From NCBI GenBank assembly GCA_903934015.1, contig CAIZMI010000021.1, positions 10,868 to 74,867 of the forward strand: a stretch of 64,000 bases of DNA, read 5' to 3'. The first letter of the stretch is position 1. Every line of letters starts with the position of its first letter. Source of the DNA: an uncultured bacterium. GTDB lineage: Bacteria; Patescibacteriota; Andersenbacteria; UBA10190; CAIZMI01. Position numbers and translations under genes: made by a program. A model generated the notes under the pieces. It was not told the origin of the DNA, did not search any database, and saw nothing but the letters and a program-made list of their open reading frames with translations. Below are positions 7,361-64,000 of the stretch, one piece after another.

Positions 7361-7389
7361 TTGACCGCATTACTTAAACAAAATATAAT
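7361..7389 (+). promoter_or_regulatory. sigma70-like promoter TTGACC-N17-TATAAT upstream of the pilin-like array
   Basis: The -35 ttgacc (7361-7366), a 17-nt spacer and the -10 tataat (7384-7389) are near-consensus. They lie 11 nt upstream of the ATG at 7400. Confidence 0.5.
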
Positions 7390-7399
7390 TCACTTAAAG

Positions 7400-8905: not shown

Positions 8906-8945
8906 ACAAAATTTATTTATTTTATTGGGAGGAGGTGAGTACGAC

Positions 8946-31542: not shown

Positions 31543-31555
31543 TGTTGATTCCGTT

Positions 31556-32143: not shown

Positions 32144-32152
32144 GAATATTTT

Positions 32153-32740: not shown

Positions 32741-32745
32741 AAGAT

Positions 32746-33339: not shown

Positions 33340-33348
33340 TTTTTAATT

Positions 33349-33714: not shown

Positions 33715-33740
33715 TTGGATTTAATAATAAAGATTATCAA

Positions 33741-34742
33741 ATGCGCGAGAATTCTAAAATTCTAATCATCGATGACGATAAATTCTTTTTGGAATTTTAC
33801 CGTGCAGAGTTTGCTCAATTAAATTTGACTACGGATTTCGCCAAGGATGGCGAGGATGGATTACAAAAAATACTTGAACTTCAGCCAGACGTTGTTTTGC
33901 TTGACCTAATGTTGCCGAAAAAAGATGGTTTTGCGGTTTTGCGTGAAATGCGCGCCAACGATCAAACAAAAAAAATTCCTGTTGTTGTAGTAACCTCATT
34001 AAATGCACCCTTAGCGCTGAAACAACTTGAGGGGCTTGAAGTGCAAAAAATATTCAACAAATTATTCAGTTTACCGAAAGAAGTGGTGGAATATGTTTGT
34101 GAGTTACTTGATAGAGAAAATGGTCGTGTTGCGGAAACCGGAAAATCGGTCGAGAAAAAAGGGTCTTATTTGTCTAAAGCGACTCTGGAGCAAATTTTTA
34201 AAGGTAGTCTGACAGAGATTGAGCTGGCCTTCGAAAGAATATTCTCTCAAAAAGCACAAATTGAAGACTATAATATGGCATTAATTCCACCAAGCGAATT
34301 CAAAAAAAACATTATTGATTTAACCCGCCAGCCAGGAGCAGTTTTTCTGTTTGCACCGATTAAGGCGGTTGTGGCGGGGGCGGCACTGATGGCAATGCGT
34401 CGCAGTGATGTGCTGACAATGATTAAATTGATTCAAGAAAGCGCCTTGGGGAAGAATCTTGAGTTGAACACGGACGATAGGGTGGTAGAAGAATTTTTCA
34501 ATATGATTATTAATTCCTTTCTTACAAAACTTTCAAGTTCTATGACCGGCCCCGTTCTCCTGCAGACGCCAGTTTTTGTGAACGAGAAAGAAGTTGTTGA
34601 TGAATTGGCTAAAATAGATGCTTTCGACTTGAAGGATTCTTCGGTGATGTTTATTGAAGAATCATATTCCTTCAAAGATCTCGATTTAGATATTGCCATA
34701 TACATTACGTTTGGCAGTGAATTATTTACAAAACTACGATGA
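33741..34742 (+). CDS. response regulator with an N-terminal REC domain and a C-terminal CheX/CheC-like domain of about 200 aa
   Basis: REC motifs are ILIIDDD...VLLDLMLP...VVVTS. The C-terminal region (FAPIKAVVAGAALMAMRR...FFNMIINSFLTKLSS) resembles CheX-type phosphatases. Confidence 0.55.
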   Translation: MRENSKILIIDDDKFFLEFYRAEFAQLNLTTDFAKDGEDGLQKILELQPDVVLLDLMLPKKDGFAVLREMRANDQTKKIPVVVVTSLNAPLALKQLEGLEVQKIFNKLFSLPKEVVEYVCELLDRENGRVAETGKSVEKKGSYLSKATLEQIFKGSLTEIELAFERIFSQKAQIEDYNMALIPPSEFKKNIIDLTRQPGAVFLFAPIKAVVAGAALMAMRRSDVLTMIKLIQESALGKNLELNTDDRVVEEFFNMIINSFLTKLSSSMTGPVLLQTPVFVNEKEVVDELAKIDAFDLKDSSVMFIEESYSFKDLDLDIAIYITFGSELFTKLR

Positions 34743-35110
34743 ACAAAGATATTTCAATTTTAGTAGTTGACGATTCAGCTTTCATGCGACAATACATTAT
34801 TGGGTTTTTGCATGAATTGGGTTATGAAAAAATCAGTGAGGCTGGTAATGGTCCTGCCGCATTGAATGCAGTAAACGAGAGTATGCCGGATGTTGTTTTG
34901 TTGGACATGATTATGCCAATAATGGATGGTATGGAGGCTTTGGAGAAACTCGTAGAATTAAACGCGCGCGTAATTGTTGTTACCGCGATGGGTCAACGTA
35001 TTACGATCGTGAAAGCCATTGAAAAAGGTGCGCGTGGTTATTTTGTAAAACCATTTTTCACGGCACATGAGTTGGGACGTAAAATTGAAGAGGTAATAAA
35101 CGAGGATTAA
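34739..35110 (+). CDS. CheY-like response regulator (single REC domain)
   Basis: REC motifs are ILVVDDSAFMR...VLLDMIMP...VVTAMGQ...KPF. Confidence 0.8.
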   Translation: MNKDISILVVDDSAFMRQYIIGFLHELGYEKISEAGNGPAALNAVNESMPDVVLLDMIMPIMDGMEALEKLVELNARVIVVTAMGQRITIVKAIEKGARGYFVKPFFTAHELGRKIEEVINED

Positions 35111-35113
35111 AAG

Positions 35114-36181
35114 ATGGTAAAAACGCAGTCCACGATAAGAATAGTCATCGCTGACGATTCGTTTTTTATGCGTCGTTTGCTGACAGAGATAATTAAAAAT
35201 TATCGTGACCTGGAGATTGTCGGTGAAGCGCGAGATGGACAGCAAGCGTTGGAATTAGCCAATAAATTGAAGCCGGACGTAATTACGATGGATTACAATA
35301 TGCCGGTTTTGAATGGCGCAGAAGCAACAAAGAAGATTATGCGAGTGATGGAAAACCCGCCGGCGATAATCATGCTCTCCGCGCATACACGTGAAGGCGC
35401 AGCCGAAACATTTCGGTGTTTACGGGCAGGCGCACTTGAATACATTACCAAACCATCAGGCGAGTTATCGCTTGATATCAACATAATTGAGGATGAAATA
35501 ATTGAAAAAATTCGTACTGCTTCTCAGTCGCGAGTAAAAAAATACGAAGAAATAAAACAGCGGGAAAAAAGAGGAGTTGTGACAGCGAAGAAGCTGACTA
35601 AGGTGGTAGTAATTGGCGCTTCAACCGGTGGGCCGCCTTTAGTGGAAAATCTCGTGAGCGAAATGCCCGCAAATTTAAACGTGGCCGTTGTTATTATTCA
35701 GCATATGCCGAAGTTTTTTACAGAAATATTTGCGGAAAGACTGAATGATATTTCTGTCTTGCCAGTAAAAGAAGTGGTTAATGGAGATGTCCTTGAGGCG
35801 GGGAAAATGTATCTTTCGCCGGGGGGAAATGTGCTGAAATTTACCAGACTGGAAACCGGTGTGCGCAAAGGCGAAGTAATAATGGAACTACTTACTGAGA
35901 AGGTCCATTCTAAGCTCAGCACAATCGATGGCGCCATGGCTTCGCTGGCGACGGTATTCAAGAAAAATATTATTGCAGTGCTTTTGACCGGTATGGGTGA
36001 GGATGGCTTGGTTGGGGTGAAAGAAGTTAAGCAAGCCGGGGGTTATGTGATTGCGCAAGATCCAAACACTGCGGCGGTGCGTTCAATGCCGGAAGCGGTA
36101 ATTCAGGCGCAACTGGTAGATGCTGTTTTGTCACCGGAGAAAATAATCGATAAAATAATTGAACAATGTCAATCGATCTAA
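35114..36181 (+). CDS. cheB: protein-glutamate methylesterase CheB (REC plus methylesterase)
   Basis: An N-terminal REC domain is followed by a CheB methylesterase domain (VVIGASTGGPPLVENL...VIIQHMP...GMGEDG). Confidence 0.85.
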   Translation: MVKTQSTIRIVIADDSFFMRRLLTEIIKNYRDLEIVGEARDGQQALELANKLKPDVITMDYNMPVLNGAEATKKIMRVMENPPAIIMLSAHTREGAAETFRCLRAGALEYITKPSGELSLDINIIEDEIIEKIRTASQSRVKKYEEIKQREKRGVVTAKKLTKVVVIGASTGGPPLVENLVSEMPANLNVAVVIIQHMPKFFTEIFAERLNDISVLPVKEVVNGDVLEAGKMYLSPGGNVLKFTRLETGVRKGEVIMELLTEKVHSKLSTIDGAMASLATVFKKNIIAVLLTGMGEDGLVGVKEVKQAGGYVIAQDPNTAAVRSMPEAVIQAQLVDAVLSPEKIIDKIIEQCQSI

Positions 36182-37848
36182 ATAAGTTTAAAAACATATT
36201 TCTGGAAGAGGCGGAAGAGCATATCCAAAAGTTGAATGATAATTTGTTGTTGTTGGAAAAAAACCCGGACGAACCAAAAATTTTTGACGAATTAATGCGT
36301 TCAGCGCATACAATCAAGGGCTCATCGGCAACGATGCAATTTCAGCAGGTGGCCTTTTTGACGCACGTAATGGAAGATATTTTTGACTATGCACGCAATG
36401 GTCAACTGGCGATAACTAAAAAGATTATTGGATTACTTTTTGAGGCTTTGGATGGTCTTCAGAATGCTATGAGTGAAATCGGTAAAAACAAGGAGGAGCC
36501 GAACCTTTCGGTGCTTTCCGCTAAGTTAAAAAAAGTAACCGGTGTGGCAACTGAAGGAATAGGAAGGTCACTTCGGACAGTTGATGGAAAACCAGTCGTG
36601 CAAGAGAAAGAAAAGAATAAAAATGAAAACGGCGCGCCCGTTTTGTTGTCCGGTATTGAACATGCGGTAGAAAAACTCTCACACATCAAAGTACCGGTTG
36701 AAAGAATGGACGCCCTGATGGATCTCATGGAAGAGTTGTTGATTGATAAAATGCGCTTATTGCAGATTGAAAAGGGAAATAAAAAAACCGACGAAGTGGT
36801 GGAACACATTAGTCGCTTGATTTCCGATTTGCAATTCCAGGTGATGCAGGTGCGCTTGGTGCCGGTAGAGCAAGTTTTTGCGCGTTTTCCACGGATGGTT
36901 CGCGACCTTAGTGTTGCGCAGGGGAAAAAAGTGGATTTTGAGATAGTTGGCGGTGAACTGGAATTAGACCGCACAATCGTTGATAAGCTGAGTGAACCGA
37001 TATTGCATATGTTACGTAACGCCATTGATCATGGGATTGAAAAAGATGGTTATGTGAAACTTTCGGCGGCGCGTGAAAAAGAATTTGTCTTGCTGTCTGT
37101 TGAAAATGGCGGAATTGATATTGATTGGAAGAAGTTGGTTACAGTAAGCGCAAAGAAGGGAATTGTTTCCGACGAGAAAGCCGGCGAATATCTTACCGAA
37201 TTGAGCGCGGATGAAAGCAGAACCCCCAGAGCAGAGATTGTTGATCTGTTATTTGGAGGAGTTTCTACGAATGATGCAGTGACAGAAACATCCGGTCGAG
37301 GTGTGGGAATGAGTATTGTTAGAAAATTTGCTGAGGCCGTAAACGGCGCTGTACAAGTGGAGTCGCCATTGGCTGGAGGGAAAGGTGCAAAAATTACGTT
37401 AGAGCTACCGCCCACGTTGGCAATTATTAATGCACTCCTGGTAGAAATTAATCATGAAACGATGGCTATTCCTTTTTCGAGTGTTGATCGTGCGGTTGCG
37501 ATTCAAGAACAAAACATAAAATTGATGGGTGACAGAGAAGTTGCGGTGGAAAGTGATGCGGATTTACCGCTCGTTCGTTTTCGCAAACTAGAAGGAACAA
37601 ATAATTTGGTGAGCAAGGAAGTGAAAAAGAAACAAGAAACTGTTGTAATTGTTAAAAGGGGTAAAGATCGTGCGGGGATAGTAGTAGACAAGATTGTTGG
37701 TGGCTACGAAATAATTGTGAAGCCGATGGCGCCGGTTTTACGTCATTTAAATGGCTTTAGTGGCTCTACGATTTTGGGAGACGGCCGGACAATCTTAATT
37801 ATTGATGTGCTGACAATGTTGAAAAGCACGCGCATTCTTCAGAATTAA
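36166..37848 (+). CDS. cheA: chemotaxis histidine kinase CheA
   Basis: It contains an HPt domain (SAHTIKGSSATMQF), an HATPase_c domain (GRGVGMSIV) and a C-terminal CheW-like domain. Confidence 0.9.
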   Translation: MSIDLNKFKNIFLEEAEEHIQKLNDNLLLLEKNPDEPKIFDELMRSAHTIKGSSATMQFQQVAFLTHVMEDIFDYARNGQLAITKKIIGLLFEALDGLQNAMSEIGKNKEEPNLSVLSAKLKKVTGVATEGIGRSLRTVDGKPVVQEKEKNKNENGAPVLLSGIEHAVEKLSHIKVPVERMDALMDLMEELLIDKMRLLQIEKGNKKTDEVVEHISRLISDLQFQVMQVRLVPVEQVFARFPRMVRDLSVAQGKKVDFEIVGGELELDRTIVDKLSEPILHMLRNAIDHGIEKDGYVKLSAAREKEFVLLSVENGGIDIDWKKLVTVSAKKGIVSDEKAGEYLTELSADESRTPRAEIVDLLFGGVSTNDAVTETSGRGVGMSIVRKFAEAVNGAVQVESPLAGGKGAKITLELPPTLAIINALLVEINHETMAIPFSSVDRAVAIQEQNIKLMGDREVAVESDADLPLVRFRKLEGTNNLVSKEVKKKQETVVIVKRGKDRAGIVVDKIVGGYEIIVKPMAPVLRHLNGFSGSTILGDGRTILIIDVLTMLKSTRILQN

Positions 37849-37857
37849 CTATCTTTT

Positions 37858-38460
37858 ATGTTTACAGAATTTGAGCAAGATGAGTTGAGAGAAATTGTAA
37901 ATATCGGTTCCGGTAACGCGAGCACGGCATTAGCAAAAATGCTAAAACAAAAAATCCATGCGTCCGTGCCGTTGATTTTGTTTGACGAGGTGCAGAATAT
38001 TTTACCAAAACTCGGGTTGGCCGATAGTCGTGTGACCGTTGTTTTAGTGCGTGTCGATGGCGAGATTCCCGGAGTCTTCTTTATTGCGTTGCCATTAGAA
38101 AACGGATTGGAGTTGGCATCCATGCTGACGGGCGAAGAAAAATCAGGGACTCTCTTGAATGAATTTGGCAGCTCCGCACTTAAAGAAGTGGGGAACATTC
38201 TCTCCGGGGCGTCACTTACGGCACTTTCAAAGTTTTTAGGTTTGGATTTTGTGCAGTCTGTTCCGGAAATTACATCTGATATGCTGGGGGCAATTTTGGA
38301 GTCGATTTTAGTCGAGACGGGTGAAGCGTATGAAAAAATTCTTTTGATTAGCACGAACCTGGATTTTGCTACCGATTGTCACGCGCGATTGTTCTTCGTT
38401 TTCAATCCGGATGCAACAAATGGAATATTGTCGGCTGTTCAGCGGAAATTAGAAAAATAA
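37858..38460 (+). CDS. cheC: chemotaxis phosphatase CheC
   Basis: The classic CheC motifs ELREIVNIGSGNASTALAKML and ALKEVGNILSGASLTALSKFLG are present. Confidence 0.8.
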   Translation: MFTEFEQDELREIVNIGSGNASTALAKMLKQKIHASVPLILFDEVQNILPKLGLADSRVTVVLVRVDGEIPGVFFIALPLENGLELASMLTGEEKSGTLLNEFGSSALKEVGNILSGASLTALSKFLGLDFVQSVPEITSDMLGAILESILVETGEAYEKILLISTNLDFATDCHARLFFVFNPDATNGILSAVQRKLEK

Positions 38461-38462
38461 TT

Positions 38463-38930
38463 ATGCATGAGGATGTAAAATACATTGGCACTGGCGAGGT
38501 GGCGGTTTCAAGTACCGGCATCATCAAAACTTCCGGTATCGGATCCTGTATTGTCGTGACGCTTTACGATGGTGAGAAAAAAATTGGCGGGATGGTGCAT
38601 GCGATGCTACCGGCGAGAAAAGAGAATGGAACGGAGTATCTTTTATCTCCAAAATATACCGATGAAGCAATTGAAATTTTAATTGATGAAATTGAACAAC
38701 AAGGTGGTAGCAGAGAAAGGTTAAAAGCAAAGTTGATTGGCGGTGCAAAAATGTTTCGGTTGTTGAGTGGCGATAACTTTGGAATTGGTTTTAAGAATAT
38801 TGAATCAGCCAGGGAAAATCTTGGGGCTATCGGGATCTTGATTGAGAGTGAAGATGTTGGTGGCACTATTGGGCGCAGTGCGGAATTAAATCTGGAGAAT
38901 GGTTTGGTTTTAGTCAGTTCGATGATGTAG
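38463..38930 (+). CDS. cheD: chemoreceptor glutamine deamidase CheD
   Basis: The CheD motif GIGSCIVVTLYD...GMVHAMLP is present. The start was moved to the ATG at 38463, directly after the CheC stop; the ORF-track start at 38376 overlaps cheC. Confidence 0.8.
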   Translation: MHEDVKYIGTGEVAVSSTGIIKTSGIGSCIVVTLYDGEKKIGGMVHAMLPARKENGTEYLLSPKYTDEAIEILIDEIEQQGGSRERLKAKLIGGAKMFRLLSGDNFGIGFKNIESARENLGAIGILIESEDVGGTIGRSAELNLENGLVLVSSMM

Positions 38931-44572: not shown

Positions 44573-45151
44573 ATGTTTATAAAAGACATCGCAGAAGTTC
44601 AAGCCGGATTTGCTTTCCGTGAAGCCATTGTACCGAATCGTGAAGGAAATATTTGCGTTTTTCAGGCCAAGGATCTAGTTCAGGGGGTGCCTTTTACTAA
44701 TACTGCTTCTTTGATAAAAGTTTCCCTAGAATTGCCGGAATATGTTGGCCATCTTAGAAAAAATGACGTTCTTTTGGTTGCGCGGGGCATGAAAGCCGGA
44801 ACATTTCGTTCAACGGTCTTCAATACTGACGAAGTCAACGTGATTGCTTCTTCCTCTGTGCACATTATTCGCATTACCGCTAACGACGTTATTCCCGAAT
44901 ATGTTTCGCACTACTTGAATTGCAAGGATGGCCAGAATGCTATTTCGGAAATCTTATCCGGGGCGCATATTGGGGTAATACCGCGGAAAGAGTTGGAAAA
45001 TATGAAAATCCCGATACCGGTTATTGGTAAACAGAAATCAATAGTTAACTTAATGAATAATATGCGCGAGCAACAGCGAATAGTGGAAAAAAGAAACGCC
45101 TTGAAACAAGAAATTATCGATGGAACTTTTAGAAATCTAACCACCAAATAA
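44573..45151 (+). CDS. hsdS: type I restriction-modification specificity subunit, half-size (single target-recognition domain)
   Basis: One TRD is followed by a conserved C-terminal helical repeat (KQKSIVNLMNNMREQQRIVEKRNALKQEIID). At 192 aa it is about half a canonical HsdS. Confidence 0.7.
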   Translation: MFIKDIAEVQAGFAFREAIVPNREGNICVFQAKDLVQGVPFTNTASLIKVSLELPEYVGHLRKNDVLLVARGMKAGTFRSTVFNTDEVNVIASSSVHIIRITANDVIPEYVSHYLNCKDGQNAISEILSGAHIGVIPRKELENMKIPIPVIGKQKSIVNLMNNMREQQRIVEKRNALKQEIIDGTFRNLTTK

Positions 45152-45156
45152 AAATT

Positions 45157-46671
45157 ATGACTAATCCAACAAAATTCAATCAAGAAGATCTTAATAAAAC
45201 GCTCTGGGCGGCGGCGGACTCTTCGCGTAGTCAGTTGGCAGCGGAGGTATACAAAGATTATGTATTACCGATGTTGTTTTTGAAATACATCAGTGATTTA
45301 AACAAGAAACGGCGCGCCGAATATAAAGAACGTTTTGGCGCCGATGAAAAACGTATTGATGAAAAAATGAAACTGGATCGCTTTTATTTGCCGCCAAAAT
45401 CTTCGTTTGATTACATTTACGGCAAAATTGAGGAAGATAATATCGGAGAAGAAATTAACAAGGTTCTTGATCGCATTGAGGAAGCAAATAAAGAGAAACT
45501 CGACGGCGTATTCAGTGTTGATTTCAACTCGGAATCCGTTTTGGGAAAAATTGATCAACGCAACAAAATGTTGCGCCATCTAATTCAGGACTTTGCAAAA
45601 ATCGATTTGGCGGACGTTGGTGATGATATTATCGGCAATTCGTATATGTATATGATCGAGCGTTTTGGCGCCGATGCTGGTAAGAAGGCGGGCGAATTTT
45701 TTACCATGAGATCGGTAGCAAAACTGGTGGCAATGTTGGCCGAACCGCAAAAGGGCGACAGGATTGCGGACCCGGCCTGCGGATCAGGTGGCCTGCTTTT
45801 ATTGGCCGGTGAAGAAGTGGAGAAAAAAGGATCCAAGAATTACGCGCTTTATGGGCAGGAATCAACAGGCTCCACGTATCAGCTAGCACGGATCAATATG
45901 TTTCTTCATGGCAAGGATTCGGCGCGACTTGAATGGGGTGACACGCTGAATAATCCATTACTTGTGGAAAACGACCAATTGATGCATTTCGACGTGGTTG
46001 TTGCCAACCCGCCATTTTCCTTGAAAAAATGGGGTGCTGAACATGCAGGAGAAGATAAGTACAATCGCTTTTGGCGTGGTGTTCCTCCCAAGGATAAAGG
46101 TGATTACGCGTTTGTTACCCATATGGTGGAAACCGCCAAACCAAAAACCGGGCGCGTGGCGGTGATCGTACCGCACGGTGTTTTGTTTCGCGGGGGCGCG
46201 GAAGGTAGTATTCGCGAGCAATTTTTGAAGGAAAATATCATTGATACGGTGATTGGGCTTCCGGCGGGGCTGTTTCAAACAACGGGTATTCCGGTGGCGA
46301 TTCTGGTGATTGATCGGTCGCGCGAAAAGGGCGGAGCCAATGAAAACAAAAAAGATGTATTGTTTATCGAGGCCTCAAAAGAATTTAAGCCAGCGAAAGC
46401 CAAAAATATCTTAACCGAGGAAAACATTACGAAAATATTTGATACCTATAAACAACGTAAAAACGTCAAAAAGTTTTCCCGCAAAGTAAATTTTAAGGAA
46501 ATCGAAGAAAACGATTTCAATTTAAATATCACTCGCTACGTTGATACGTTTGAAGAAGAAGAGCCGATTGATATTAAGGCAAATCTAAAAGAATTGGAAA
46601 AGCTTGAACCGGAATTGAAAAAACTGGAAAAACAAATGGTGGAGTATTTAAAGGAATTGGGAATTAATTAA
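45157..46671 (+). CDS. hsdM: type I restriction-modification DNA methyltransferase subunit M (N6-adenine)
   Basis: An HsdM N-terminal domain, the SAM-binding motif DPACGSGGLL and the catalytic motif VVANPPFS are present. Confidence 0.9.
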   Translation: MTNPTKFNQEDLNKTLWAAADSSRSQLAAEVYKDYVLPMLFLKYISDLNKKRRAEYKERFGADEKRIDEKMKLDRFYLPPKSSFDYIYGKIEEDNIGEEINKVLDRIEEANKEKLDGVFSVDFNSESVLGKIDQRNKMLRHLIQDFAKIDLADVGDDIIGNSYMYMIERFGADAGKKAGEFFTMRSVAKLVAMLAEPQKGDRIADPACGSGGLLLLAGEEVEKKGSKNYALYGQESTGSTYQLARINMFLHGKDSARLEWGDTLNNPLLVENDQLMHFDVVVANPPFSLKKWGAEHAGEDKYNRFWRGVPPKDKGDYAFVTHMVETAKPKTGRVAVIVPHGVLFRGGAEGSIREQFLKENIIDTVIGLPAGLFQTTGIPVAILVIDRSREKGGANENKKDVLFIEASKEFKPAKAKNILTEENITKIFDTYKQRKNVKKFSRKVNFKEIEENDFNLNITRYVDTFEEEEPIDIKANLKELEKLEPELKKLEKQMVEYLKELGIN

Positions 46672-46763
46672 AAGTAGTTTTATGGAAATAATTTTTACGC
46701 GATCAACATCAAATAATACTTTGTATGAGGTTCTTGAAAAATTGAAGCTGTTAAAATCGGTAT

Positions 46764-47963
46764 ATGAAAGCTAAGCAGGTAAAAAAAAATGGTTGTGATG
46801 GATGGTTGATAATAAAACTTGGTGATCTTGCTGTGATTAGTCGTGGTGGATCTCCTCGACCCATAGAGTCTTATATAACTGATGATAAAAATGGTCTTAA
46901 TTGGCTTAGGATTGGTGATATAAAACTGGGTGCTAAATATGTATATGGGACTAGTCAAAAAATAAAAAAAGAAGGACTATCAAAAACGACTCTGGTTGAG
47001 AGTGGTGACTTCATTCTCTCCAATTCAATGAGCTTTGGTCGTCCTTACATTATGAAAATAAGTGCATGCATTCATGATGGTTGGCTTGCACTTAGAAAGA
47101 TTAAAACTGATCTGGTTAGCAAGGAGTTTTTGTACTATTTATTATCGTCAAAAAAGATTCAGAACGATTTTGTGTCTATTTCTGCTGGGTCAGGTGTTCA
47201 GAATTTAAAAAAAGATACAGTGTCTACTGTTGCAGTAAAAATACCATTGGTTGATGAGCAGAACAGCATTGTCGCCGTCTTGGAAACATGGGATGAAGCG
47301 ATTGAAAAACTAACTAAAAAAATTGAAATTAAGAAGGCAATTAAAAAAGGATTGATGCAGGAATTGCTTAAGGGAAAAACTCGGTTGTCTGGGTTTAAGG
47401 ATAAATGGGAAGTTAAAAAACTAGGGGATGTGTGTGATATTGGCACTGGGAGTAAAAACAATCAAGATAAAATCAGCAATGGGGTTTATCCTTTTTATGT
47501 AAGGTCTCCTATTATCGAGCGAATTAACTCATATTCGTACGATGGAGAAGCAATACTAATTCCAGGGGAAGGAAATATTGGGAAAATATTTCATTATATA
47601 AATGGCAGATTTGATTTTCATCAGCGTGTGTATAAAATTAGTGACTTTAAATTAAACGTACTTGGTAAGTATCTCTATTACTATTTGGTTAAGCACTTTT
47701 CGAAAGCAACAAAATCAGATTCAGTTAAGGCGACAGTTGATTCTTTGCGTTTGCCCACCTTCACTAAATTTCAGGTTCAAATTCCAGCCTTAGCGGAACA
47801 AAAAGCAATTGTCGAAATTCTTGATGTTGCAAATGAGGAAGTAAAAAAATTACAAAAACAACTCACAATCCTTAAAGATCAAAAAAAGTTTCTGCTGAAC
47901 AATCTAATCACGGGCGCGATTCGCACGCCTGAAAAATTTAGCATTAAAACAACAAAGCGATGA
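46764..47963 (+). CDS. hsdS: type I restriction-modification specificity subunit S (two target-recognition domains)
   Basis: Two TRDs are separated and followed by conserved coiled-coil repeats (SIVAVLETWDEAIEKL...; KAIVEILDVANEEVKKLQKQL). Confidence 0.85.
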   Translation: MKAKQVKKNGCDGWLIIKLGDLAVISRGGSPRPIESYITDDKNGLNWLRIGDIKLGAKYVYGTSQKIKKEGLSKTTLVESGDFILSNSMSFGRPYIMKISACIHDGWLALRKIKTDLVSKEFLYYLLSSKKIQNDFVSISAGSGVQNLKKDTVSTVAVKIPLVDEQNSIVAVLETWDEAIEKLTKKIEIKKAIKKGLMQELLKGKTRLSGFKDKWEVKKLGDVCDIGTGSKNNQDKISNGVYPFYVRSPIIERINSYSYDGEAILIPGEGNIGKIFHYINGRFDFHQRVYKISDFKLNVLGKYLYYYLVKHFSKATKSDSVKATVDSLRLPTFTKFQVQIPALAEQKAIVEILDVANEEVKKLQKQLTILKDQKKFLLNNLITGAIRTPEKFSIKTTKR

Positions 47964-48796
47964 ACAAAAAACAAGTGGACAGCACAAAGATCACCATTTT
48001 CGAGGAAAAAGAAGTGCGTCGAGTTTGGCACAACGAACAGTGGTATTTTGTTATTACCGACGTAATTCAGATTCTTACGGACTCCATTAATGCGAGTGAT
48101 TATCTTAAAAAGATGAGAATTCGTGATGAAGAGCTTTCCAAAGGGTGGGGACAAATTGTCACCCCCCTTCAGATTGAAACAAAAGGAGGAAAACAGACGA
48201 TAAATTGTGCCGATACTGAAGGGATTTTTCGCATTATTCAGTCAATTTCTTCTCCCAAGGCGGAGCCGTTCAAACGTTGGCTGGCCAGGGTAGGAAAAGA
48301 GCGCATCGAAGAAATTGCCGATCCTGAACTGGCTGTCACAAGGGCGAAGGAAATTTATGACAAGAAGGGTTATCCAAAGGATTGGGTTGATAAGCGAATA
48401 CGCGGTATTGCCGTTAGAAATACGTTAACTGATGAGTGGAAGCAAAGAGGTGTAATAAAGGGTCTTGAGTTTGCGATCTTAACCGATGAAATATATAAAG
48501 CAACTTTTGAAAAAACCGCCAAAGAATACATGGAACATAAGGGGCTTGATAAAAAAGCGGGTGATAATTTGCGCGATCATATGGGTGATATCGAATTGAT
48601 TTTAACAATGCTGGGTGAGGCGACGACGACAAAAGTCACGACGGAGAAAGATTCCAAGGGCTTGGAAGCGTTAAAAAAGGATGCGCAGGTTGGTGGTGGT
48701 ATCGCGGGACGAACGCGGAAAGACATTGAAGAAAAAACGGGAAAGAAAGTGGTATCAAGCGATAATTTTAAAAATTTGAAGCTTTTAAAGAAATGA
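47960..48796 (+). CDS. Bro-N/DinD-like (DNA-damage-inducible protein D family) protein embedded in the RM operon
   Basis: The N-terminus (FEEKEVRRVWHNEQWYFVITDVIQILT) resembles the Bro-N/KilA-N fold of DinD. Translational coupling on both sides is consistent with its membership in the hsd operon. Confidence 0.5.
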   Translation: MNKKQVDSTKITIFEEKEVRRVWHNEQWYFVITDVIQILTDSINASDYLKKMRIRDEELSKGWGQIVTPLQIETKGGKQTINCADTEGIFRIIQSISSPKAEPFKRWLARVGKERIEEIADPELAVTRAKEIYDKKGYPKDWVDKRIRGIAVRNTLTDEWKQRGVIKGLEFAILTDEIYKATFEKTAKEYMEHKGLDKKAGDNLRDHMGDIELILTMLGEATTTKVTTEKDSKGLEALKKDAQVGGGIAGRTRKDIEEKTGKKVVSSDNFKNLKLLKK

Positions 48797-51700
48797 AAAT
48801 ACAGCAAAACGAAAATACCACATTAGGCAACGAATCTTATAGACCATTGCTAAAAGAAGTAAATTTTGACGAAGCGAAACAGTCACAGCTCCCGGCGATT
48901 GAAATGCTTTTGGCAATGGGTTACGAATATGTTTCTGTCGATGAGGCACTTCGGCAACGCGGGGGAGATATCGGCAATTTTATTCTCTCCAATGTCGCAA
49001 AAGAGAAATTGATGGAAATTAACGGGTACGAGGTGAACGGCGTGAAATATAAATTCAGCGAAAAAGATGTACAGGACGCGATTGATGAACTGGAGCATAT
49101 TCAATACGAAGGTCTAATCGATACGGCGCAGAAAATATACAACGTAATTATGCCGACGAGCGGTGGAAAAACGATCAAGGTTAGTATTGGCGGAAAAACC
49201 GTTTCCAAGAATTTTCGCTTTATCGATTTTGAAAATTTGGCAAACAATGTTTTTCACGTATCTGCGGAATTTGTCGCGTCCGGCAAACAAAATATTCGTC
49301 CTGATGTTGTTTGTTTTGTAAACGGTATTCCGTTTGCCGTAATCGAGAATAAAAAATCGAGTGTGAATGTTTCGGAAGCGATCAATCAAATGAATCGAAA
49401 TCAGGGGCCGGAATTTTGTCCGAAGCTTTTTACCTTCACGCAACTTTTAGTGGGGACAAATGGCAAAGAACTGGAATACGGGACAACGGGCACGCCGAAC
49501 AAATTTTATGTGGTCTGGAAAGAGAAGGGGATGGCGTTGGATAAAATTGATGCAAAATTGGCGACTTTGATCGCAAAGAAAATTAAGCCGGATATTTATG
49601 CGCAGATATTAACCGATTTGAATGGTTATACCAACGGGCACACACAGCGAACTGATCGCTTGCCAACCGAGCAGGACAGAGGAATTTTTGCGCTTTTTGA
49701 ACCAAAAAGACTTTTAGATTTGGCAAAAAATTATGTTTTGTTTGACGCGGGAATTAAAAAACTTTCTCGTTATCAGCAATATTTTGCGATTAATAAAATA
49801 TTAAATAGAATCAGGGAAGAAGAAACGATGCCAAATGGTACATCGAGACGCCGTGGTGGTTTGGTGTGGCACACGCAAGGATCCGGCAAGTCTTTAACGA
49901 TGGTGATGTTTGTCAAAGCGCTGATTGAAAATCAGGGGATAATTAATCCGCGAATTATCATTGTCACGGATCGGCGGGATTTGGATCGGCAGATTAAGGG
50001 AACTTTTAAGAATTGCAATTTAAAGAAAGAAGTAATTCAGGCGAAAAGTGGTCAGCATTTGTTGGAATTGATAAAAGAAAAAAACCTCGCGGTTATTACG
50101 ACAGTAATCGATAAGTTTGAGTCTGTGGCAAATAAGAACAAGAAGACATGTTTTGTTGATGCTGATAAAAATATCTTTGTGTTGGTTGACGAAGCGCATC
50201 GAAGTCAAAGCGGGATTGCCAATTTGGAGATGAATCGGATTATTCCGAACGCTTGTTATATCGGTTTTACCGGCACGCCGTTGATGAAAAAAGACCGTGA
50301 AAGCTGGAAAAAATTCGGCGGATACATTGATCAATACACGATTGACGACGCGTTGGCGGATAAAATTATTTTGCCGTTAATCTATGAGGGAAGATATGTC
50401 ACGATGGTGCAGAACGCGGAGCAGATTGATCGTCACGCCGAATATATCTCGGAGGATATTGTTAAGAAATTTGATACGAGTGCCGATTCAAAATTTCGAA
50501 CGCTACAGAAGCAAATTACGGCGGATGTTATCAAAAATAATCCTCAAAGAATCGAGGAAATTGCGCGTGATATAGAGAAACACTATTCCGAACATTTTAA
50601 AAATACCGGACTGAAAGCGCAAATTGTGGCCCCGTCCAAATTTTCGGCCATCAAATTTCAAAAGTTCTTCCAAGATCGTGGTAATTTATGCACGGCGGTG
50701 GTGATTTCTGATGAACATGATGATGGTGATGAAGAGGACACGCACAAGAAAGAAGTCGTTAATTATCTTGATACTGTTCGCAAAAAATACAGCAGTGTCG
50801 CCAAGTACGAGAAAGATGTGATTGATAGTTTTAAGTACAACGAGGATGGCATTGAGATTATTATTGTTGTTGATAAGTTGCTTACCGGCTTTGACGCGCC
50901 ACGCAACACCGTGCTTTACCTTGCAAAAGACCTGCGCGATCATAACTTGCTTCAGGCAATCGCCCGCGTGAATCGTTTGCATGAAAACAAGAAACGTCCC
51001 AAGACTGCCGGGTACATAATTGATTATTCGGAAAATGCCAAAAATATCGATACGGCGATGAAGTTGTTTGGCAATTACGATGAAAAAGATGTTAAAGGAA
51101 CGCTGATTGATGTTAAAGAGAAAGTACAGGAACTCGAGGAAGGTTATAGTCTTTTGCACGATATTTTTAAGGGGGTTGAAAGTACGACAGATGATGAAGC
51201 CTTTTTACGTTTTCTGGATGATGCGCCAAAACGAGAGATGTTTTATAAAGCGCTTAACGCGTTTATTAAGAATCTTAATGAATGTTTTGTGCTTCAGGAT
51301 TTTGTGCATGAATTTAAATATCTTGATATTTATACGCGGGAACTAAAAAAGTTTATGGAACTGCGTAAATCGGCCAGTCTAAAATATGCCGACCGCATTG
51401 ATTTGTCTGAATACAAGCAGGCACTGGTTAATATTTTGGACAAATACGTTGACGCTGAAGGTGTTGAACTTTTAACGAAGCAAATCAATATCACCGATCG
51501 TAAGCAATTTGAACAAGCGGTTGAAACATTGGGATCCGATAAATCAAAGGCGGAAGCCATTGCCGCGCAAACACAAAGAACGATTACGGAAAAAATGGAT
51601 TCGGATCCGGAATTCTATGACCGATTTTCCAAGAAAATTAGAGAAATCCTGCAGAAGATGTATGACGGAAAGATGGCGGATATTATCGCACTTAAACAGA

Positions 51701-52068
51701 TGAAACTTATCGAAGACGATGTTGTTGCAAAAAAAGACGCGAGTTTGCCGAAACCTATTGTCGCGGAAAAAGGTTCGGACGTATTCTTTCGCAATCTGCA
51801 TGGCTCATTTAATAAATTTAATTTGGAAGAGGAAGTTTATATCAGCTTGGTATTGGATATATTCCATATTGTAAAAGAAGAAGCAATTATCGACTGGCAC
51901 AATAATCTGGACGTAAAACGGCGCATGATTGGCGCAATTGATGATTTTCTTTATGACGTTGTTAAGCGGGAGCGGGGTGTTGACTTATCGGACGAGGACA
52001 TGAAAGCAATTATCGCGTCGGTAATGGCGCTTGCGGAGAACAATAATGGAATCTTTGTCGAATCTTAA
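48793..52068 (+). CDS. hsdR: type I restriction enzyme R subunit (HsdR)
   Basis: It has an N-terminal PD-(D/E)xK nuclease region and an SF2 helicase with motif I (GSGKSLT) and motif II (VLVDEAHRSQ). Length is 1091 aa. Confidence 0.9.
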   Translation: MKIQQNENTTLGNESYRPLLKEVNFDEAKQSQLPAIEMLLAMGYEYVSVDEALRQRGGDIGNFILSNVAKEKLMEINGYEVNGVKYKFSEKDVQDAIDELEHIQYEGLIDTAQKIYNVIMPTSGGKTIKVSIGGKTVSKNFRFIDFENLANNVFHVSAEFVASGKQNIRPDVVCFVNGIPFAVIENKKSSVNVSEAINQMNRNQGPEFCPKLFTFTQLLVGTNGKELEYGTTGTPNKFYVVWKEKGMALDKIDAKLATLIAKKIKPDIYAQILTDLNGYTNGHTQRTDRLPTEQDRGIFALFEPKRLLDLAKNYVLFDAGIKKLSRYQQYFAINKILNRIREEETMPNGTSRRRGGLVWHTQGSGKSLTMVMFVKALIENQGIINPRIIIVTDRRDLDRQIKGTFKNCNLKKEVIQAKSGQHLLELIKEKNLAVITTVIDKFESVANKNKKTCFVDADKNIFVLVDEAHRSQSGIANLEMNRIIPNACYIGFTGTPLMKKDRESWKKFGGYIDQYTIDDALADKIILPLIYEGRYVTMVQNAEQIDRHAEYISEDIVKKFDTSADSKFRTLQKQITADVIKNNPQRIEEIARDIEKHYSEHFKNTGLKAQIVAPSKFSAIKFQKFFQDRGNLCTAVVISDEHDDGDEEDTHKKEVVNYLDTVRKKYSSVAKYEKDVIDSFKYNEDGIEIIIVVDKLLTGFDAPRNTVLYLAKDLRDHNLLQAIARVNRLHENKKRPKTAGYIIDYSENAKNIDTAMKLFGNYDEKDVKGTLIDVKEKVQELEEGYSLLHDIFKGVESTTDDEAFLRFLDDAPKREMFYKALNAFIKNLNECFVLQDFVHEFKYLDIYTRELKKFMELRKSASLKYADRIDLSEYKQALVNILDKYVDAEGVELLTKQINITDRKQFEQAVETLGSDKSKAEAIAAQTQRTITEKMDSDPEFYDRFSKKIREILQKMYDGKMADIIALKQMKLIEDDVVAKKDASLPKPIVAEKGSDVFFRNLHGSFNKFNLEEEVYISLVLDIFHIVKEEAIIDWHNNLDVKRRMIGAIDDFLYDVVKRERGVDLSDEDMKAIIASVMALAENNNGIFVES

Positions 52069-53176: not shown

Positions 53177-53384
53177 TTAAGCACAAATACTACTTTAAAC
53201 AAAGCATATTTTCAAGACACACAAGCTTGATTATTAAAGGAATTTGGAATAGTATTGCGATATTGGATTTTTAATTTCCAATAATAATTTGGTGGCTATG
53301 GTTCAAAAGCAGAACGTCCGGTTGTGGTCCGGGAGACGAGGGGGCGGTACCCTCTAGCCACCCATAGTGGAATTAATAAAGTGA

Positions 53385-60606: not shown

Positions 60607-60667
60607 CTCTGTAAGGGTAGAGGACGCAGGGTACAGGCGGTCAGGGCTCGCGGATAATCGCACAGCT

Positions 60668-60705
60668 TCCTCCCTTTATCCAAAGGGGGGCGGGGAGGGA
60701 TTTGG
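60668..60705 (+). repeat. repeat family C short copy (cctccctttatccaaaggggggcggggagggattt)
   Basis: It matches the core of 7240..7335 (tcctccctttattcaaagg...ggcggggagggatttcg). Confidence 0.55.
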
Positions 60706-60852
60706 TTTTGTATGTGGTATTTGAAATTATTGACAATAATTATTTTTGAAGTCTCGTTTGTTTATAATCTGTTTCTTCAACTTAGGGGCGATTCATGAAT
60801 CGCCCCTACAGCGCATGATCGCTTCTAGAATAAAAAAAGAAGTGAGGAATAC

Positions 60853-61221
60853 TCACTTCGGGGATTCGTCGGTCGTGGTGTCCGTGGCGTAGTCGGGTTT
60901 GTGTTTTTCAATGTACTCGATGACTCGCATCAGCAATTCCGTCGCCGTCGGTTCTCGTGACATCACTGGAAAGTCCATGTGGCTCAAAAGGTGCGCCGTG
61001 ACATCCTTGATTTCGGGTACTCCCGCGCATTCGTTGCGCGCAAGAACAATAAGGATGCCGCGTAGTGCTCTCTTCCCGCCGATCGTGATCAATTGTTGCA
61101 ATGCTGTAAAGAGTACGGTTTCGATTGGGTCATTCTCGGATACAACGGCAAAATTAATAAAATTGAATACCATTGGAATCTTCCCCTTAACAGAACAAGA
61201 AACAACACTCGAACAAAACAA
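60853..61221 (-). CDS. hypothetical protein
   Basis: The ORF has a plausible internal start (MVFNFINF...) and no recognisable family. Confidence 0.35.
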   Translation of the reverse strand: MFCSSVVSCSVKGKIPMVFNFINFAVVSENDPIETVLFTALQQLITIGGKRALRGILIVLARNECAGVPEIKDVTAHLLSHMDFPVMSREPTATELLMRVIEYIEKHKPDYATDTTTDESPK

Positions 61222-61400
61222 ACGCCAGATTTTTATAATGTATTATATTTTTTCTGTCAACTTTGACAAAAAGTCGCATTTGAATTAAGATATAGGTAGT
61301 AATTGTTCCTTAGACAGGTGAAAAAAGTTCTAGCTCGCGGATTTTGGTGTCTCTTGCACGGTGCATGAGAACTCCAGAAGGATCCTTTGGAGAAAAAAAC

Positions 61401-61604
61401 ATGGACCCGCGCGCTTTAGAACCGCTTCTGCAGTTCATTCTGCCCATTGCCCTCACACTCGTGGCACTCAATGTGGGTGCAAACATGATTGGTTTTGGAA
61501 AGAAATGGATCAAGAAGCTCACGACGAAGGTTGTGCAAGGATTGGTGGCGGTGAGCATTTTTTGGCTCGCCATCCTGATCCTCGCCGAAGCCGTTCGTCG
61601 CTAG
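61401..61604 (+). CDS. small membrane protein (two TM helices)
   Basis: An ATG at 61401 inside the 61344 ORF gives a 67-aa product with two hydrophobic helices. A terminator follows at about 61746. Confidence 0.4.
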   Translation: MDPRALEPLLQFILPIALTLVALNVGANMIGFGKKWIKKLTTKVVQGLVAVSIFWLAILILAEAVRR

Positions 61605-61745
61605 TTTTTCCCTGCCACCCATAGTCTTGGCGAAGGATGGGCCTTTCGCTCTTTCATCCTTGAGTCCTCTTTGTGTCACCGGTACCTCGCATGCGAAGTG
61701 CCCAGGAGCCTTTGGACTCAAGGATCGACATGTAAACAGACATGT

Positions 61746-61769
61746 AAAAACACCCACGGGTGTTTTTTT
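61746..61769 (+). terminator. rho-independent terminator
   Basis: The hairpin aaaacaccc-acg-ggtgttttttt is followed by a T-run. Confidence 0.7.
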
Positions 61770-61828
61770 CTTGCTTTCGATAATGTCTGAACCTTGTTTT
61801 TACGCGCATTTTGCGTTAGCTTTTCTGT

Positions 61829-62908
61829 ATGTCAAATAATACTGAATCAGAGGACGAAATCTACAAAAAATATTCGTTGATGTCTCGACCTGATATTTTA
61901 GAAGCGGTAAAAAGAGGGGATATTTATTACGAAGACGGCAAAGAAAGTAATATAAAGTCTTCCAGTGTCGACCTGACACTTGGTCCCTGGTATTGGGAAG
62001 AAACATCGCCAACAATTGAAAGACGTATTTTTAATCCGAATTCGGCTGAAGATGTAAACCGTGTTTGGGGTAGGCTTTGTTTTGCGCCACGGCACAGTTG
62101 GTGGTTACACAATCGCTATATTGAAAATACGCTGGAAGGTTTTCACCCGGAAGATCGGATCTATTTTATTGCTCCACAAAAGCAACTGCTTACCAGTACG
62201 CGTGAATTCATTGGCGGGACAACGCGTGATATTACAACCATGATGAAAGCCCGTTCCGGGGCAGGGCGCAGTTTTTTGGAAGTGTGTCGATGCGCAGGGT
62301 GGGGCGATATTGGGTATCACAATCGTTGGACAATGGAATTTAATAATTCTTCCGATACGCACTATATTCCGTTGAAAGTGGGACAGCGTTATGCGCAACT
62401 TGTTTTTTTCCGCGGGCGTGAATTGGGACAAAACGATACTGATTATCGTCAAGATGGAAAATATCAGGCAAATGTGGCACAAGGTGTGCGATCGCAGTGG
62501 ACGCCGGAAATGATGCGTCCCGCCATGTTTAGGGATCCGGAAATTATGTGTAAAGATTGCGTACAGAAAGTTTATTACCGTTGTGAAAATCCGGCTTGCG
62601 CGAAAGATGGCGCGGATGTCATTGATAATGTTCCAAAACAGTGTGCCGATTGCGGTACTCGCTTGAGAATATATGAAACACCGCCGGTAATCGAAAAGGT
62701 TTGGCCTCTTTACGATGTCTGTGTCGATTGTGGCTGTATTCATGGCGTTACTCAGAAATCTACTAGAATAGAGAGTCGTAATTATCGGCTACAGCAAGAA
62801 GTTGAACGAGCTAAACCGTTGCTTTGTGATAAGTGCAAAATCGGTTTTCGGCATTTTATCGGTGGTGATTACGAAGTTTGGTTGCCCGATGCTTCTTGTT
62901 TGCAATAA
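61829..62908 (+). CDS. dCTP deaminase/dUTPase-fold protein with a C-terminal Cys-rich (4x CxxC) zinc-ribbon extension
   Basis: The N-terminal 210 aa align with the Dcd family (ILEAVKRGDIYYE...SSSVDLTLG; AGWGDIGYHNRWTMEFNNSSDTHYIPLKVGQRYAQLVFF). The C-terminal 140 aa contain CKDC...C..C, CADC, CVDCGC and CDKC motifs. Confidence 0.65.
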   Translation: MSNNTESEDEIYKKYSLMSRPDILEAVKRGDIYYEDGKESNIKSSSVDLTLGPWYWEETSPTIERRIFNPNSAEDVNRVWGRLCFAPRHSWWLHNRYIENTLEGFHPEDRIYFIAPQKQLLTSTREFIGGTTRDITTMMKARSGAGRSFLEVCRCAGWGDIGYHNRWTMEFNNSSDTHYIPLKVGQRYAQLVFFRGRELGQNDTDYRQDGKYQANVAQGVRSQWTPEMMRPAMFRDPEIMCKDCVQKVYYRCENPACAKDGADVIDNVPKQCADCGTRLRIYETPPVIEKVWPLYDVCVDCGCIHGVTQKSTRIESRNYRLQQEVERAKPLLCDKCKIGFRHFIGGDYEVWLPDASCLQ

Positions 62909-62932
62909 TTACTTTTAGATCACTACAATAAA

Positions 62933-64000
62933 ATGATTCGCTCAGAAATTCAAAATTTACTCGCTTTCTTTGTTGAAAAGGAAGCTCCGAAAAGATCAAC
63001 CGGTAGTGAAGATGCGATAGAGATATATTCGGCTACTCAGCAGGTTGATTCCGCTTATGAAAGATTTCGTAATTTATTGGATCCCGGTGATGAGGACGTG
63101 TTGAGGAGAAAGGCGATCGGTCGTTTTATAAATTTACGTTGGGAACTATCATCTGATCCGGAAAAGTTTGCGCTTGCCTTGTTGAAAGATTTGGCGCGCG
63201 GTCATTATATTCCGGTAAACACATCTCGAATTTTGGGAACTAGCATCGCTGTGGTTCTTAAGCGGGCTGTTTGCTTTATAAAACACAATAATCAAAACGT
63301 ACCGAAATGGTTTTTACCAATGGTGGCGGTAGAAGTGGATCGAATAATTTATCCACGCGAAGGGGATGATGCGTTAGTATATTTTTTCTTTGAAGAGGTT
63401 GAAAAGAAGACAATTTGGAAAGATGACACTATTGATGTTGAGGATAAAAATACACAATTGTTTCTTGCTTGTCACCGTGTTTTGGCAAAAACAGATGAAG
63501 CAGAGTTGTTTTGGCACTTATATCGAACCGCAGAACCATCTTGGCAGGAAGAAGAATTGAACGATGATAAAATGAATTTGGTGGTTAAAAACTTTGCTCA
63601 TCTGCAACAAGAAATAGAAACCGCCTTGTATTCACCGATGTCGGTTCGTGTTTTGCGTCGGTTGCATTCGCCAGCGGTGCCATATCGCATTTTGCGTGAT
63701 GTTTTGCGACAACCCAACGCGACTGTAATTCTCGCTAATAATGAGTTGTTGGCAACGAGTGTACGTGATTTATTAATGCGCAGAATCAAGAAGACTGAAA
63801 AGCAAATGTTGAAACGCGTGTGGCATGCCGCCGCCTTTCTTTTTCTTACCAAAAGCGTATTAGCTATTGCTACGGAAATACCATATGAAATATTTCTCGG
63901 AGGAGTACGATATTTTCCGCTAATGATTAATTTATTATTTCCATCAACCTTACTTTTCCTAATGGCTGGGACAGTTGTCAGACCGGGGAATGATAATACA
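62933..64000 (+). CDS. hypothetical protein, 3'-truncated by the window edge, with C-terminal TM helices
   Basis: The frame stays open from the ATG at 62933 to the end of the window (355 codons read manually without a stop). It has hydrophobic segments near the end and is absent from the ORF track because no stop falls inside the window. Confidence 0.5.
   Translation, partial: MIRSEIQNLLAFFVEKEAPKRSTGSEDAIEIYSATQQVDSAYERFRNLLDPGDEDVLRRKAIGRFINLRWELSSDPEKFALALLKDLARGHYIPVNTSRILGTSIAVVLKRAVCFIKHNNQNVPKWFLPMVAVEVDRIIYPREGDDALVYFFFEEVEKKTIWKDDTIDVEDKNTQLFLACHRVLAKTDEAELFWHLYRTAEPSWQEEELNDDKMNLVVKNFAHLQQEIETALYSPMSVRVLRRLHSPAVPYRILRDVLRQPNATVILANNELLATSVRDLLMRRIKKTEKQMLKRVWHAAAFLFLTKSVLAIATEIPYEIFLGGVRYFPLMINLLFPSTLLFLMAGTVVRPGNDNT

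Follow-up and report, generated by a model that had tools for sequence, protein, structure and literature searches.

What could be the reason for a deoxycytidine triphosphate (dCTP) deaminase, a well-known enzyme, to carry at its C-terminus an additional domain with two predicted metal sites? The question is raised by a gene, here called dcd-Zn, located close to the end of a 64,000-nucleotide stretch of DNA from an uncultured bacterium of the Patescibacteriota (assembly GCA_903934015.1, contig CAIZMI010000021.1, positions 10,868 to 74,867), the whole of which is hereafter referred to as the window. A preliminary description of this DNA had noticed at 61829, on the forward strand, an open reading frame (ORF) encoding a Dcd-fold protein with a Cys-rich tail, and both the position and the reading of this ORF are confirmed. 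The same description had entertained an anti-phage function, naming as the scenario that would speak against it that of a housekeeping enzyme with a lineage-specific tail, and it is the latter that the evidence favors. On balance, the protein is probably a housekeeping dCTP deaminase of the type found in the Candidate Phyla Radiation (CPR), endowed with a lineage-specific orphan domain having two metal sites, which is probably packed on the core and would play a structural or regulatory role. The observations from which this answer is built are the fold, the conservation of the catalytic residues and of the tail cysteines, the monophyly and rarity of the fused forms, the synteny of the locus and the occupation of an equivalent chromosomal slot by a canonical Dcd. 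The features of the locus are the following.

61746..61767, + strand: terminator-like hairpin with a T run after its 9-bp stem (consensus scan only)
61829..62908, + strand: fused dcd-Zn gene, stop codon included; ATG start, complete, 359 aa (Dcd core plus Cys-rich tail)
61880..62413, + strand: Dcd catalytic domain, residues 18–195, dUTPase-like β-barrel (Pfam PF22769, Foldseek, invariant columns)
62414..62542, + strand: C-terminal arm, residues 196–238, common to the ~225-aa short CPR/amoebozoan Dcd2-type enzymes (alignments)
62543..62905, + strand: orphan C-terminal domain, residues 239–359, carrying a conserved motif and two Cys4 sites predicted to bind metal
62582..62653, + strand: predicted metal site 1 (C252, C257, C272, C275), 4/4 Cys invariant in 12 fused homologs
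62720..62836, + strand: predicted metal site 2 (C298 and C301 of CVDC, C333 and C336 of CDKC); C298, C301 and C333 invariant, C336 in 11/12
62843-62875, + strand: motif G-[YFW]-R-H-[FI]-[LI]-G-G-[DE]-Y-E, residues 339–349, invariant in the fused homologs
62933..64000, + strand: membrane-protein gene, 5′ two-thirds (356/516 codons), beginning 24 nt past the dcd-Zn stop and cut by the window edge

The hairpin at 61746..61767 lies directly upstream of dcd-Zn; the previous transcription unit would probably terminate there, dcd-Zn opening a new one. No terminator was found by the consensus scan between dcd-Zn and the membrane-protein gene.

The catalytic core

The Dcd/dUTPase fold attributed to the protein from its letters is corroborated by a Pfam match, by structural comparison and by the invariance of the catalytic residues, and on these three grounds the window protein belongs to the Dcd family. 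Pfam PF22769 (“DCD”), the cutoff of which is 27 bits, is matched over residues 18–195 with 79.4 bits, and both SSSVDLTLG (residues 44–52) and the GWGDIGY...EFNN...QLVFF region are found. In alignments of 17 and 128 homologs S46, D48, G52, R142, S143, R147, D160, E170 and Q190 are invariant, as are, across the aligned homologs (up to 128), A156, G157, G159 and Y212. The core motifs R142-S143-x3-R147, AGWGD (residues 156–160) and the catalytic E170 are all recognizable, and the R-S-x3-R, AGW-x-D and T-[LM]-E of the window protein align with the motifs of 4xjc and 1ogh. The C-terminal arm contains G210-K-Y212-Q213, the KYQ of which is the active-site lid of Dcd structures, together with W224, P226, P231 and D236, invariant in the same two alignments.

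The AlphaFold2 model of the full-length protein has a mean predicted local distance difference test (pLDDT) value of 92.8 and a predicted template modelling (pTM) score of 0.88. When this model was compared with the PDB by Foldseek, E-values ranged from 1e-10 to 3e-12, the best match being 4xjc (2.9e-12); the template modelling (TM) scores on the target were 0.75–0.79 for the top six matches (4xjc, 2qxx/4a6a, 2v9x), 0.83–0.88 for the apo enzyme of M. tuberculosis (2qlp) 0.75–0.88 within the top 20 and 0.64–0.88 overall, the values for 4xjc, 2qxx, 2v9x and 1xs1 being 0.71–0.79. These PDB matches, which are to bifunctional Dcd-Dut enzymes (4xjc, 2qxx) and to E. coli Dcd (2v9x, 1xs1), span ~190–200 columns and thus correspond to the core only. 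The window protein shares fold and catalytic motifs with the canonical Dcd and Dcd-Dut enzymes (1xs1/2v9x of E. coli, 2qxx of M. tuberculosis, 1ogh of M. jannaschii and 4xjc of B. halodurans); on the other hand, it is only 17–25% identical to them, its core has ~25 extra residues inserted and nothing equivalent to its 120-aa tail is found in them. The premise that canonical Dcd enzymes lack such a C-terminal extension is sound, the tail being confined to 12 clusters of fused forms.

Core, KYQ lid and a family-specific extension together reach approximately residue 238. As a consequence, the N-terminal Dcd match of the preliminary description stands but its extent does not: as the Dcd-family core ends at ~238, the tail amounts to ~120 aa instead of 140. 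As far as the sequence allows one to judge, the fused protein should be active as a dCTP deaminase, converting dCTP to dUTP, or straight to dUMP, and thereby feeding thymidylate synthesis; R142, S143 and R147 would bind the nucleotide, D160 would be the acidic residue of the AGWGD loop, E170 the catalytic residue and KYQ the C-terminal lid.

Relatives of the core and origin of the fusion

In a search through 5.8 billion proteins 2,926 relatives came to light, of which 120 matches were listed. Full-length fused forms account for 12 clusters (P0001–P0012) among the 120 matches listed, with identities from 51 to 100%; the other matches listed are ~225 aa long, are 40–47% identical over residues ~1–240 and come, where their source is named, mostly from Patescibacteria/CPR or from Amoebozoa (Dictyostelium, Vannella, Acytostelium). 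Dcd2 of Dictyostelium has been found to rescue an E. coli dcd knockout and is reported as nested within CPR bacteria, giant-virus relatives of the enzyme being also mentioned (2023; PMC10733785). To judge from organism and clade position, not from the accession, the Dictyostelium match P0113 would be this published Dcd2 (DDB_G0268194) and, if it is taken as such, the clade of the window core holds one experimentally functional dCTP deaminase. The window core falls within the “Dcd2” clade of CPR/Patescibacteria, its closest kin being the ~2,900 short Dcd-like proteins from Patescibacteria and Amoebozoa, with identities of 41–47%. Fused and short CPR enzymes have in common the insertions relative to canonical Dcd, the catalytic residues and the arm GKYQ...W.P...P...D.E, but the short forms end at residue ~225–240, without the Cys-rich tail, whereas the fused clade stands apart on a long branch of its own, marked by 21 signature substitutions.

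When only the core domain is considered, the fused forms are monophyletic, and from this monophyly it follows that the fusion arose once. The mean core distance is 0.59 between fused and short forms vs 0.27 inside the fused clade, and none of the 21 positions that set this clade apart is catalytic. One small clade would have gained, in a single event, a C-terminal domain of ~120 residues with two Cys4 sites.

The fusion is rare. A scan with the tail pattern retrieved one species representative among 185,579 GTDB species, namely GCA_964396115.1, labeled as an uncultured Candidatus Saccharibacteria and having two paralogs, as well as six JGI metagenome contigs that carry the fusion. Two fused paralogs are present in a 1.02-Mb genome (JGI 3300022664, contig Ga0247854_1000003 of 1,017,687 bp, equivalent to GCA_964396115.1), at loci L001 (10001-11077) and L006 (10001-11116); they lie ~670 kb apart and share 75% and 51% of their residues, respectively, with the window protein. 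The membrane-protein neighbor is found only at L001, the 10-kb flank of L006 holding two NUDIX genes and an HD-domain gene. As to a second enzyme of this type in the vicinity, Pfam detected no second dcd or dut among 20 window ORFs of 128–228 aa, and BLAST of all ORFs ≥60 aa, for which a canonical Dcd and the core of the fused protein served as queries, detected no second Dcd in the window or in the 6–10 kb flanks of the fused loci.

A viral or phage origin of the tail was considered and rejected. The pattern scan found no tail homolog in the IMG/VR viral contigs, tblastn against the INPHARED phage records yielded no tail homolog and one weak, core-only match (the Dcd of Yersinia phage fEV-1), and the structural matches in BFVD, the best of which is a Pithovirus protein, concern only the core.

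The C-terminal domain

Four CxxC pairs had been claimed for the tail. Four conserved pairs do exist, but CKDC (C241/C244) is not among them, being restricted to the window protein and P0002, and the true pairs, as they emerge from the 12 fused homologs, are C252-x4-C257, C272-x(1-2)-C275, C298-x2-C301 and C333-x2-C336, the second of which is C-x2-C in the window protein and C-x-C in most homologs. Of these eight Cys, which make up four pairs and two Cys4 sites, seven are present in all 12 fused homologs and C336 in 11 of them, so that the conservation of the tail cysteines, on which the earlier reading had been made to depend, holds. The metal of the Cys4 sites would most likely be zinc.

In the model every Cys pair sits on a knuckle beside a β-hairpin, and a helix (residues 313–327) interrupts site 2, whose two pairs have this helix and a β-hairpin between them. 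The pLDDT of the tail in the full-length model is 90–98 per 10-residue block, with a value of 79 for the last block (351–359). When the tail was modeled in isolation the pTM was 0.50, positions 114–124 (residues 349–359) fell below 50 and the block of the Y-E-V strand had a mean of 48. This loss of confidence (pTM from 0.88 to 0.50) suggests that the tail docks on the core, especially through the conserved C-terminal strand; according to the models, the tail probably packs back onto the catalytic core.

As regards its affiliation, the tail is zinc-ribbon-like in ligand geometry and is a member of no described family. It has the ligands of a zinc ribbon and resembles DZR and Ogr_Delta in the paired Cys knuckles, each followed by a β-hairpin, but it differs from them by the 15-residue helix in site 2 and by the GYRHFLGGEYE motif. 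A tail profile run against 1.84 billion representative proteins returned only its own family and one spurious repeat protein, the PDB offered no structural neighbor for the tail, and no described zinc-ribbon family was matched significantly by either sequence or structure. A literature search found no publication describing this fusion of Dcd with a zinc tail.

Genomic position and exchange of Dcd types

The window is ordinary chromosome. Its gene order is GyrA, ABC substrate-binding protein, type IV secretion system (T4SS)-type pilins, ClpB/C, PNPase, chemotaxis cluster, ComM and histidine kinase, followed by a type I restriction–modification (R-M) system, tRNAs, a major facilitator superfamily (MFS) protein, RecG, GT4, an α/β hydrolase, a CarS-like gene, dcd-Zn and the membrane-protein gene. 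The series RecG ... GT4/Hydrolase_4/CarS-like/dcd-Zn/membrane protein/MOFRL is syntenic with the 1.02-Mb genome, where the Dcd is 75% identical, and the block GT4/Hydrolase_4/CarS-like/dcd-Zn/membrane protein is found also on a contig at 59% identity; the backbone around the locus is syntenic at 59–75% protein identity. Elsewhere, fused members lie after the phosphoribosyl pyrophosphate (PRPP) synthetase gene (L019), beside the genes for a class II ribonucleotide reductase and for RNase HII (L018) and between uvrC and uvrA (L016). The surroundings of the fused members are nucleotide-metabolism and DNA-repair neighborhoods, not defence islands.

The most telling comparison is offered by loci in which the slot is occupied differently. 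In L029/L030 the order is PRPP synthetase/canonical 190-aa Dcd/ortholog of the membrane protein (P0147, 55% identical); this Dcd (1712-2284 in L029) scores 171 bits with the TIGR02274 equivalog, the cutoff of which is 92.8, and is 22% identical to the window core. The same order, with the fused Dcd in the middle, is found in L019 (PRPP synthetase/fused Dcd/membrane protein), while in L031/L032 the PRPP synthetase gene is followed directly by that of the membrane protein, with no Dcd in between. The presence of two very different Dcd types in one slot is the pattern expected for in-situ displacement by a functional equivalent. Furthermore, since a canonical, tail-less Dcd stands beside the same membrane protein, the adjacency of the two genes is independent of the tail; it would reflect a conserved local order PRPP synthetase/dcd/membrane protein rather than a dedicated two-component system.

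Two observations on this region may be added. At 5221-7078 of L029, ~1.2–3 kb downstream of the membrane-protein gene, there are an integrase (rve_3) and a BrnT/CopG toxin–antitoxin pair, which suggests that the neighborhood may be recombination-prone. In the window, the 1.2 kb between the CarS-like gene and dcd-Zn (60607-61828) contain only small family-less ORFs, among which one at 60853-61221 (−) and a hydrophobic one of 86 aa at 61344-61604 (+), and a G-rich sequence at ~60610-60710; this position, between the CarS-like gene and the Dcd/membrane-protein slot, is the one occupied by PRPP synthetase in L030 and L031.

The downstream membrane protein

The preliminary description had seen downstream of dcd-Zn a protein of >355 aa with C-terminal transmembrane (TM) helices and no recognizable family. 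This holds, 356 codons lying in the window and no library being matched, except that the gene starts at 62933 rather than where the Dcd gene ends. The full-length protein P0135 has 516 aa, with a helical N-terminal part of ~290 aa and at least four hydrophobic helices past residue ~300, and its gene overlaps by 4 nt the following MOFRL/DUF4147 gene. The N-terminal domain is predicted to be cytoplasmic and to be followed by at least four TM helices, the protein belonging in all likelihood to an uncharacterized CPR-specific family. This family counts ~40–60 members, all unnamed or “hypothetical protein”, the two that bear an organism label being from Patescibacteria. No match was obtained in Pfam, NCBIfam or PADLOC with the fragment, the full-length protein or 33 family members, and neither a PDB profile search nor a profile re-search of the 5.8e9-protein database gave an identity.

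If the membrane protein regularly accompanies dcd-Zn, could the tail be the element that connects the two? The zinc tail could in principle act as an adaptor docking the Dcd trimer on the cytoplasmic N-terminal domain of the 516-aa protein, so as to constitute a membrane-associated nucleotide-processing module, in which, for example, the uptake of scavenged pyrimidine nucleotides would be coupled to deamination in a host-dependent CPR bacterium. The pair is in fact kept at eight loci (the window, L001, L021, L019 and L022–L025) over a range of Dcd identity going from 100% down to 51%, despite differing upstream flanks, and the fused branch that is most basal in a neighbor-joining tree is among those that have the pair. 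The two genes are likely co-transcribed, since the intergenic gaps are short (24–86 nt in the window, L001, L021 and L019), since L023 and L024 have overlapping frames and since the window pair is not interrupted by a terminator; moreover, a non-basic tail is compatible with a protein–protein role. Against these points stand the tail-less Dcd that L029 and L030 have next to this membrane protein, the membrane proteins of L031 and L032 that have no adjoining Dcd, the fused members P0008, P0009 and the paralog P0011, which have no partner nearby, and the distant homologs of the membrane protein (25–37% identity), none of which is found beside a Dcd. Conservation of the pair across genomes, about which the preliminary description had asked, holds at the eight loci and fails for these unpaired fused members and Dcd-free homologs. 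An adaptor function appears unlikely. An obligate two-gene module, considered as a separate candidate, is weakened by the same unpaired members and Dcd-free homologs and by the canonical Dcd found in the slot.

In a broader version of this idea, the double-Cys4 domain would be a new interaction or sensing module that couples Dcd to the orphan membrane protein and, with PRPP synthetase, forms a membrane-associated pyrimidine-salvage unit peculiar to an ultra-small, host-dependent bacterium, or else the Cys4 sites would gate the lid according to redox or metal status; also in this form we regard the proposal as a long shot.

The role of the C-terminal domain

The reading preferred here, that of a housekeeping deaminase carrying a structural or regulatory domain, would have the tail stabilize or gate, for example, the trimer or its lid. 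Such a role is suggested by the charge of the tail, by the confidence of the models and by the lack of homologs, immunity and nucleic-acid binding appearing as less likely functions. What is new is a 120-residue domain that, in the models, folds confidently, has two predicted metal sites and is attached to a well-known enzyme in one tiny CPR clade. It represents a clean natural experiment on the effect of adding a zinc domain to a trimeric enzyme of the dUTPase fold and contributes a little to the picture of CPR nucleotide metabolism, which is poorly charted; the result is a modest one and opens no long-standing question.

Might the tail be instead a double zinc ribbon that binds nucleic acids, thereby tethering the deaminase to DNA or RNA (e.g., at the replisome) or autoregulating its expression? 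The modeled CxxC knuckles with their β-hairpins resemble zinc ribbons, there are weak sub-threshold Pfam matches to Ogr/Delta (PF04606, E 0.0037) and DZR (PF12773, E 0.011), and some members adjoin DNA-repair genes (uvrA/uvrC, RecG). However, these matches, with 16–18 bits against cutoffs of 26–27, are well under the gathering cutoffs, the most conserved motif of the tail, GYRHFLGGEYE, is non-basic, and the net charge is −2 in the window protein and between −6 and +2 across the members, with isoelectric points (pI) of 5.2–7.0 in 11 of 12, which is atypical of nucleic-acid-binding proteins. The suggestion of a “nucleic-acid-tethered” variant finds no support in so mildly acidic a tail, and a function of this type is improbable.

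A change of enzymatic job is to be considered as well: the fused clade might have become a pure dUTPase, or an enzyme for another pyrimidine nucleotide, with two paralogs dividing the labor. The findings that invite this proposal include two that also weigh against the view of the protein as a plain housekeeping deaminase. With 57.7 bits against a cutoff of 92.8, the window protein does not reach TIGR02274; this cutoff is missed also by the short CPR form (89.7) and by the Dictyostelium homolog (86.9), but the fused forms have the lowest scores of all (57.7 and 51.6). Furthermore, two fused paralogs within a single 1.02-Mb genome are more than plain housekeeping needs. To these may be added the length of the fused branch, with the core distances given above, and the 21 clade-specific signature positions. 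Nevertheless, the residues of Dcd chemistry, E170 included, are kept in both paralog lineages, the signature positions are peripheral and not catalytic, and the presence of a canonical Dcd in the equivalent position points to an unchanged function. A switch of activity is therefore hardly to be expected.

There remains the question of defence. AvcD is grouped here with the defensive dCTP deaminases. The window protein, to which PADLOC gave no match at E ≤ 0.1, resembles the latter in the nominal reaction and in possessing an accessory domain. Their architecture consists of an N-terminal kinase domain and a zinc-dependent cytidine-deaminase-fold domain (bioRxiv 10.1101/2021.04.26.441389). The enzymes of Tal et al. 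and AvcD have an unrelated fold with a catalytic zinc, an N-terminal kinase and a location in defence islands. The catalytic domain of the window protein has instead the dUTPase-like Dcd fold, its core begins at residue ~18, leaving no N-terminal nucleotide-kinase-like domain, and its neighbors are syntenic housekeeping genes. Because the fold of the defensive enzymes is unrelated to that of the window Dcd, the resemblance is limited to the name of the reaction and, for the same reason, the presence of an accessory domain on a dCTP deaminase does not by itself make the gene one of defence. The hypothesis of an anti-phage nucleotide-depletion effector, whose zinc tail would sense infection and unleash dCTP deamination, can appeal to the established principle of defence by dCTP deamination, to the rare and patchy occurrence of the fused form in the databases and to the type I R-M system located ~10 kb upstream (44.5–52 kb), but is very improbable in view of the different fold and architecture of the known defensive enzymes, the negative PADLOC result, the syntenic housekeeping backbone, the slot shared with a canonical Dcd, the lack of mobile-element genes flanking the window locus, and the fact that the R-M system is missing from the flank of a relative and is separated from the locus by tRNA genes, MFS and RecG. 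The anti-phage angle of the preliminary description is accordingly abandoned, and a defence system is rejected on account of the PADLOC result and of the fold.

Other features of the window

Several features are located far from dcd-Zn. Four tandem T4SS-pilin genes (PF18895) occupy 6301-7185, 7361-7780, 7777-8163 and 8886-9302. To judge from T4SS-type pilins and the CarS-like gene, and from relatives with a genome of ~1 Mb, the bacterium seems to belong to the CPR/Patescibacteria. The segment 10001-14000 has a G+C content of 0.51–0.52 vs ~0.42 elsewhere and has ORFs on both strands, mostly without a Pfam match, among which a Band_7/SPFH protein at 11543-12526 (−); Rfam detected no rRNA in this segment, which may be foreign DNA. 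The chemotaxis cluster (29467-38930), which is complete, encodes a methyl-accepting chemotaxis protein with dCache, CheW, a FliM-like protein, response regulators, CheB, CheA, CheC/CheX and CheD, and the window showed no structural genes of a flagellum. At 53292-53362, between two tRNA-Arg genes, Rfam recognizes a tRNA (44.8 bits) for which there is no ARAGORN call. The type I R-M system extends over 44573-52068 and comprises a half-size HsdS, HsdM, a full HsdS and HsdR; it is missing from the syntenic flank of L001 in the 1-Mb genome. A gene with a Bro-N domain (47960-48796) sits between its hsdS and hsdR.

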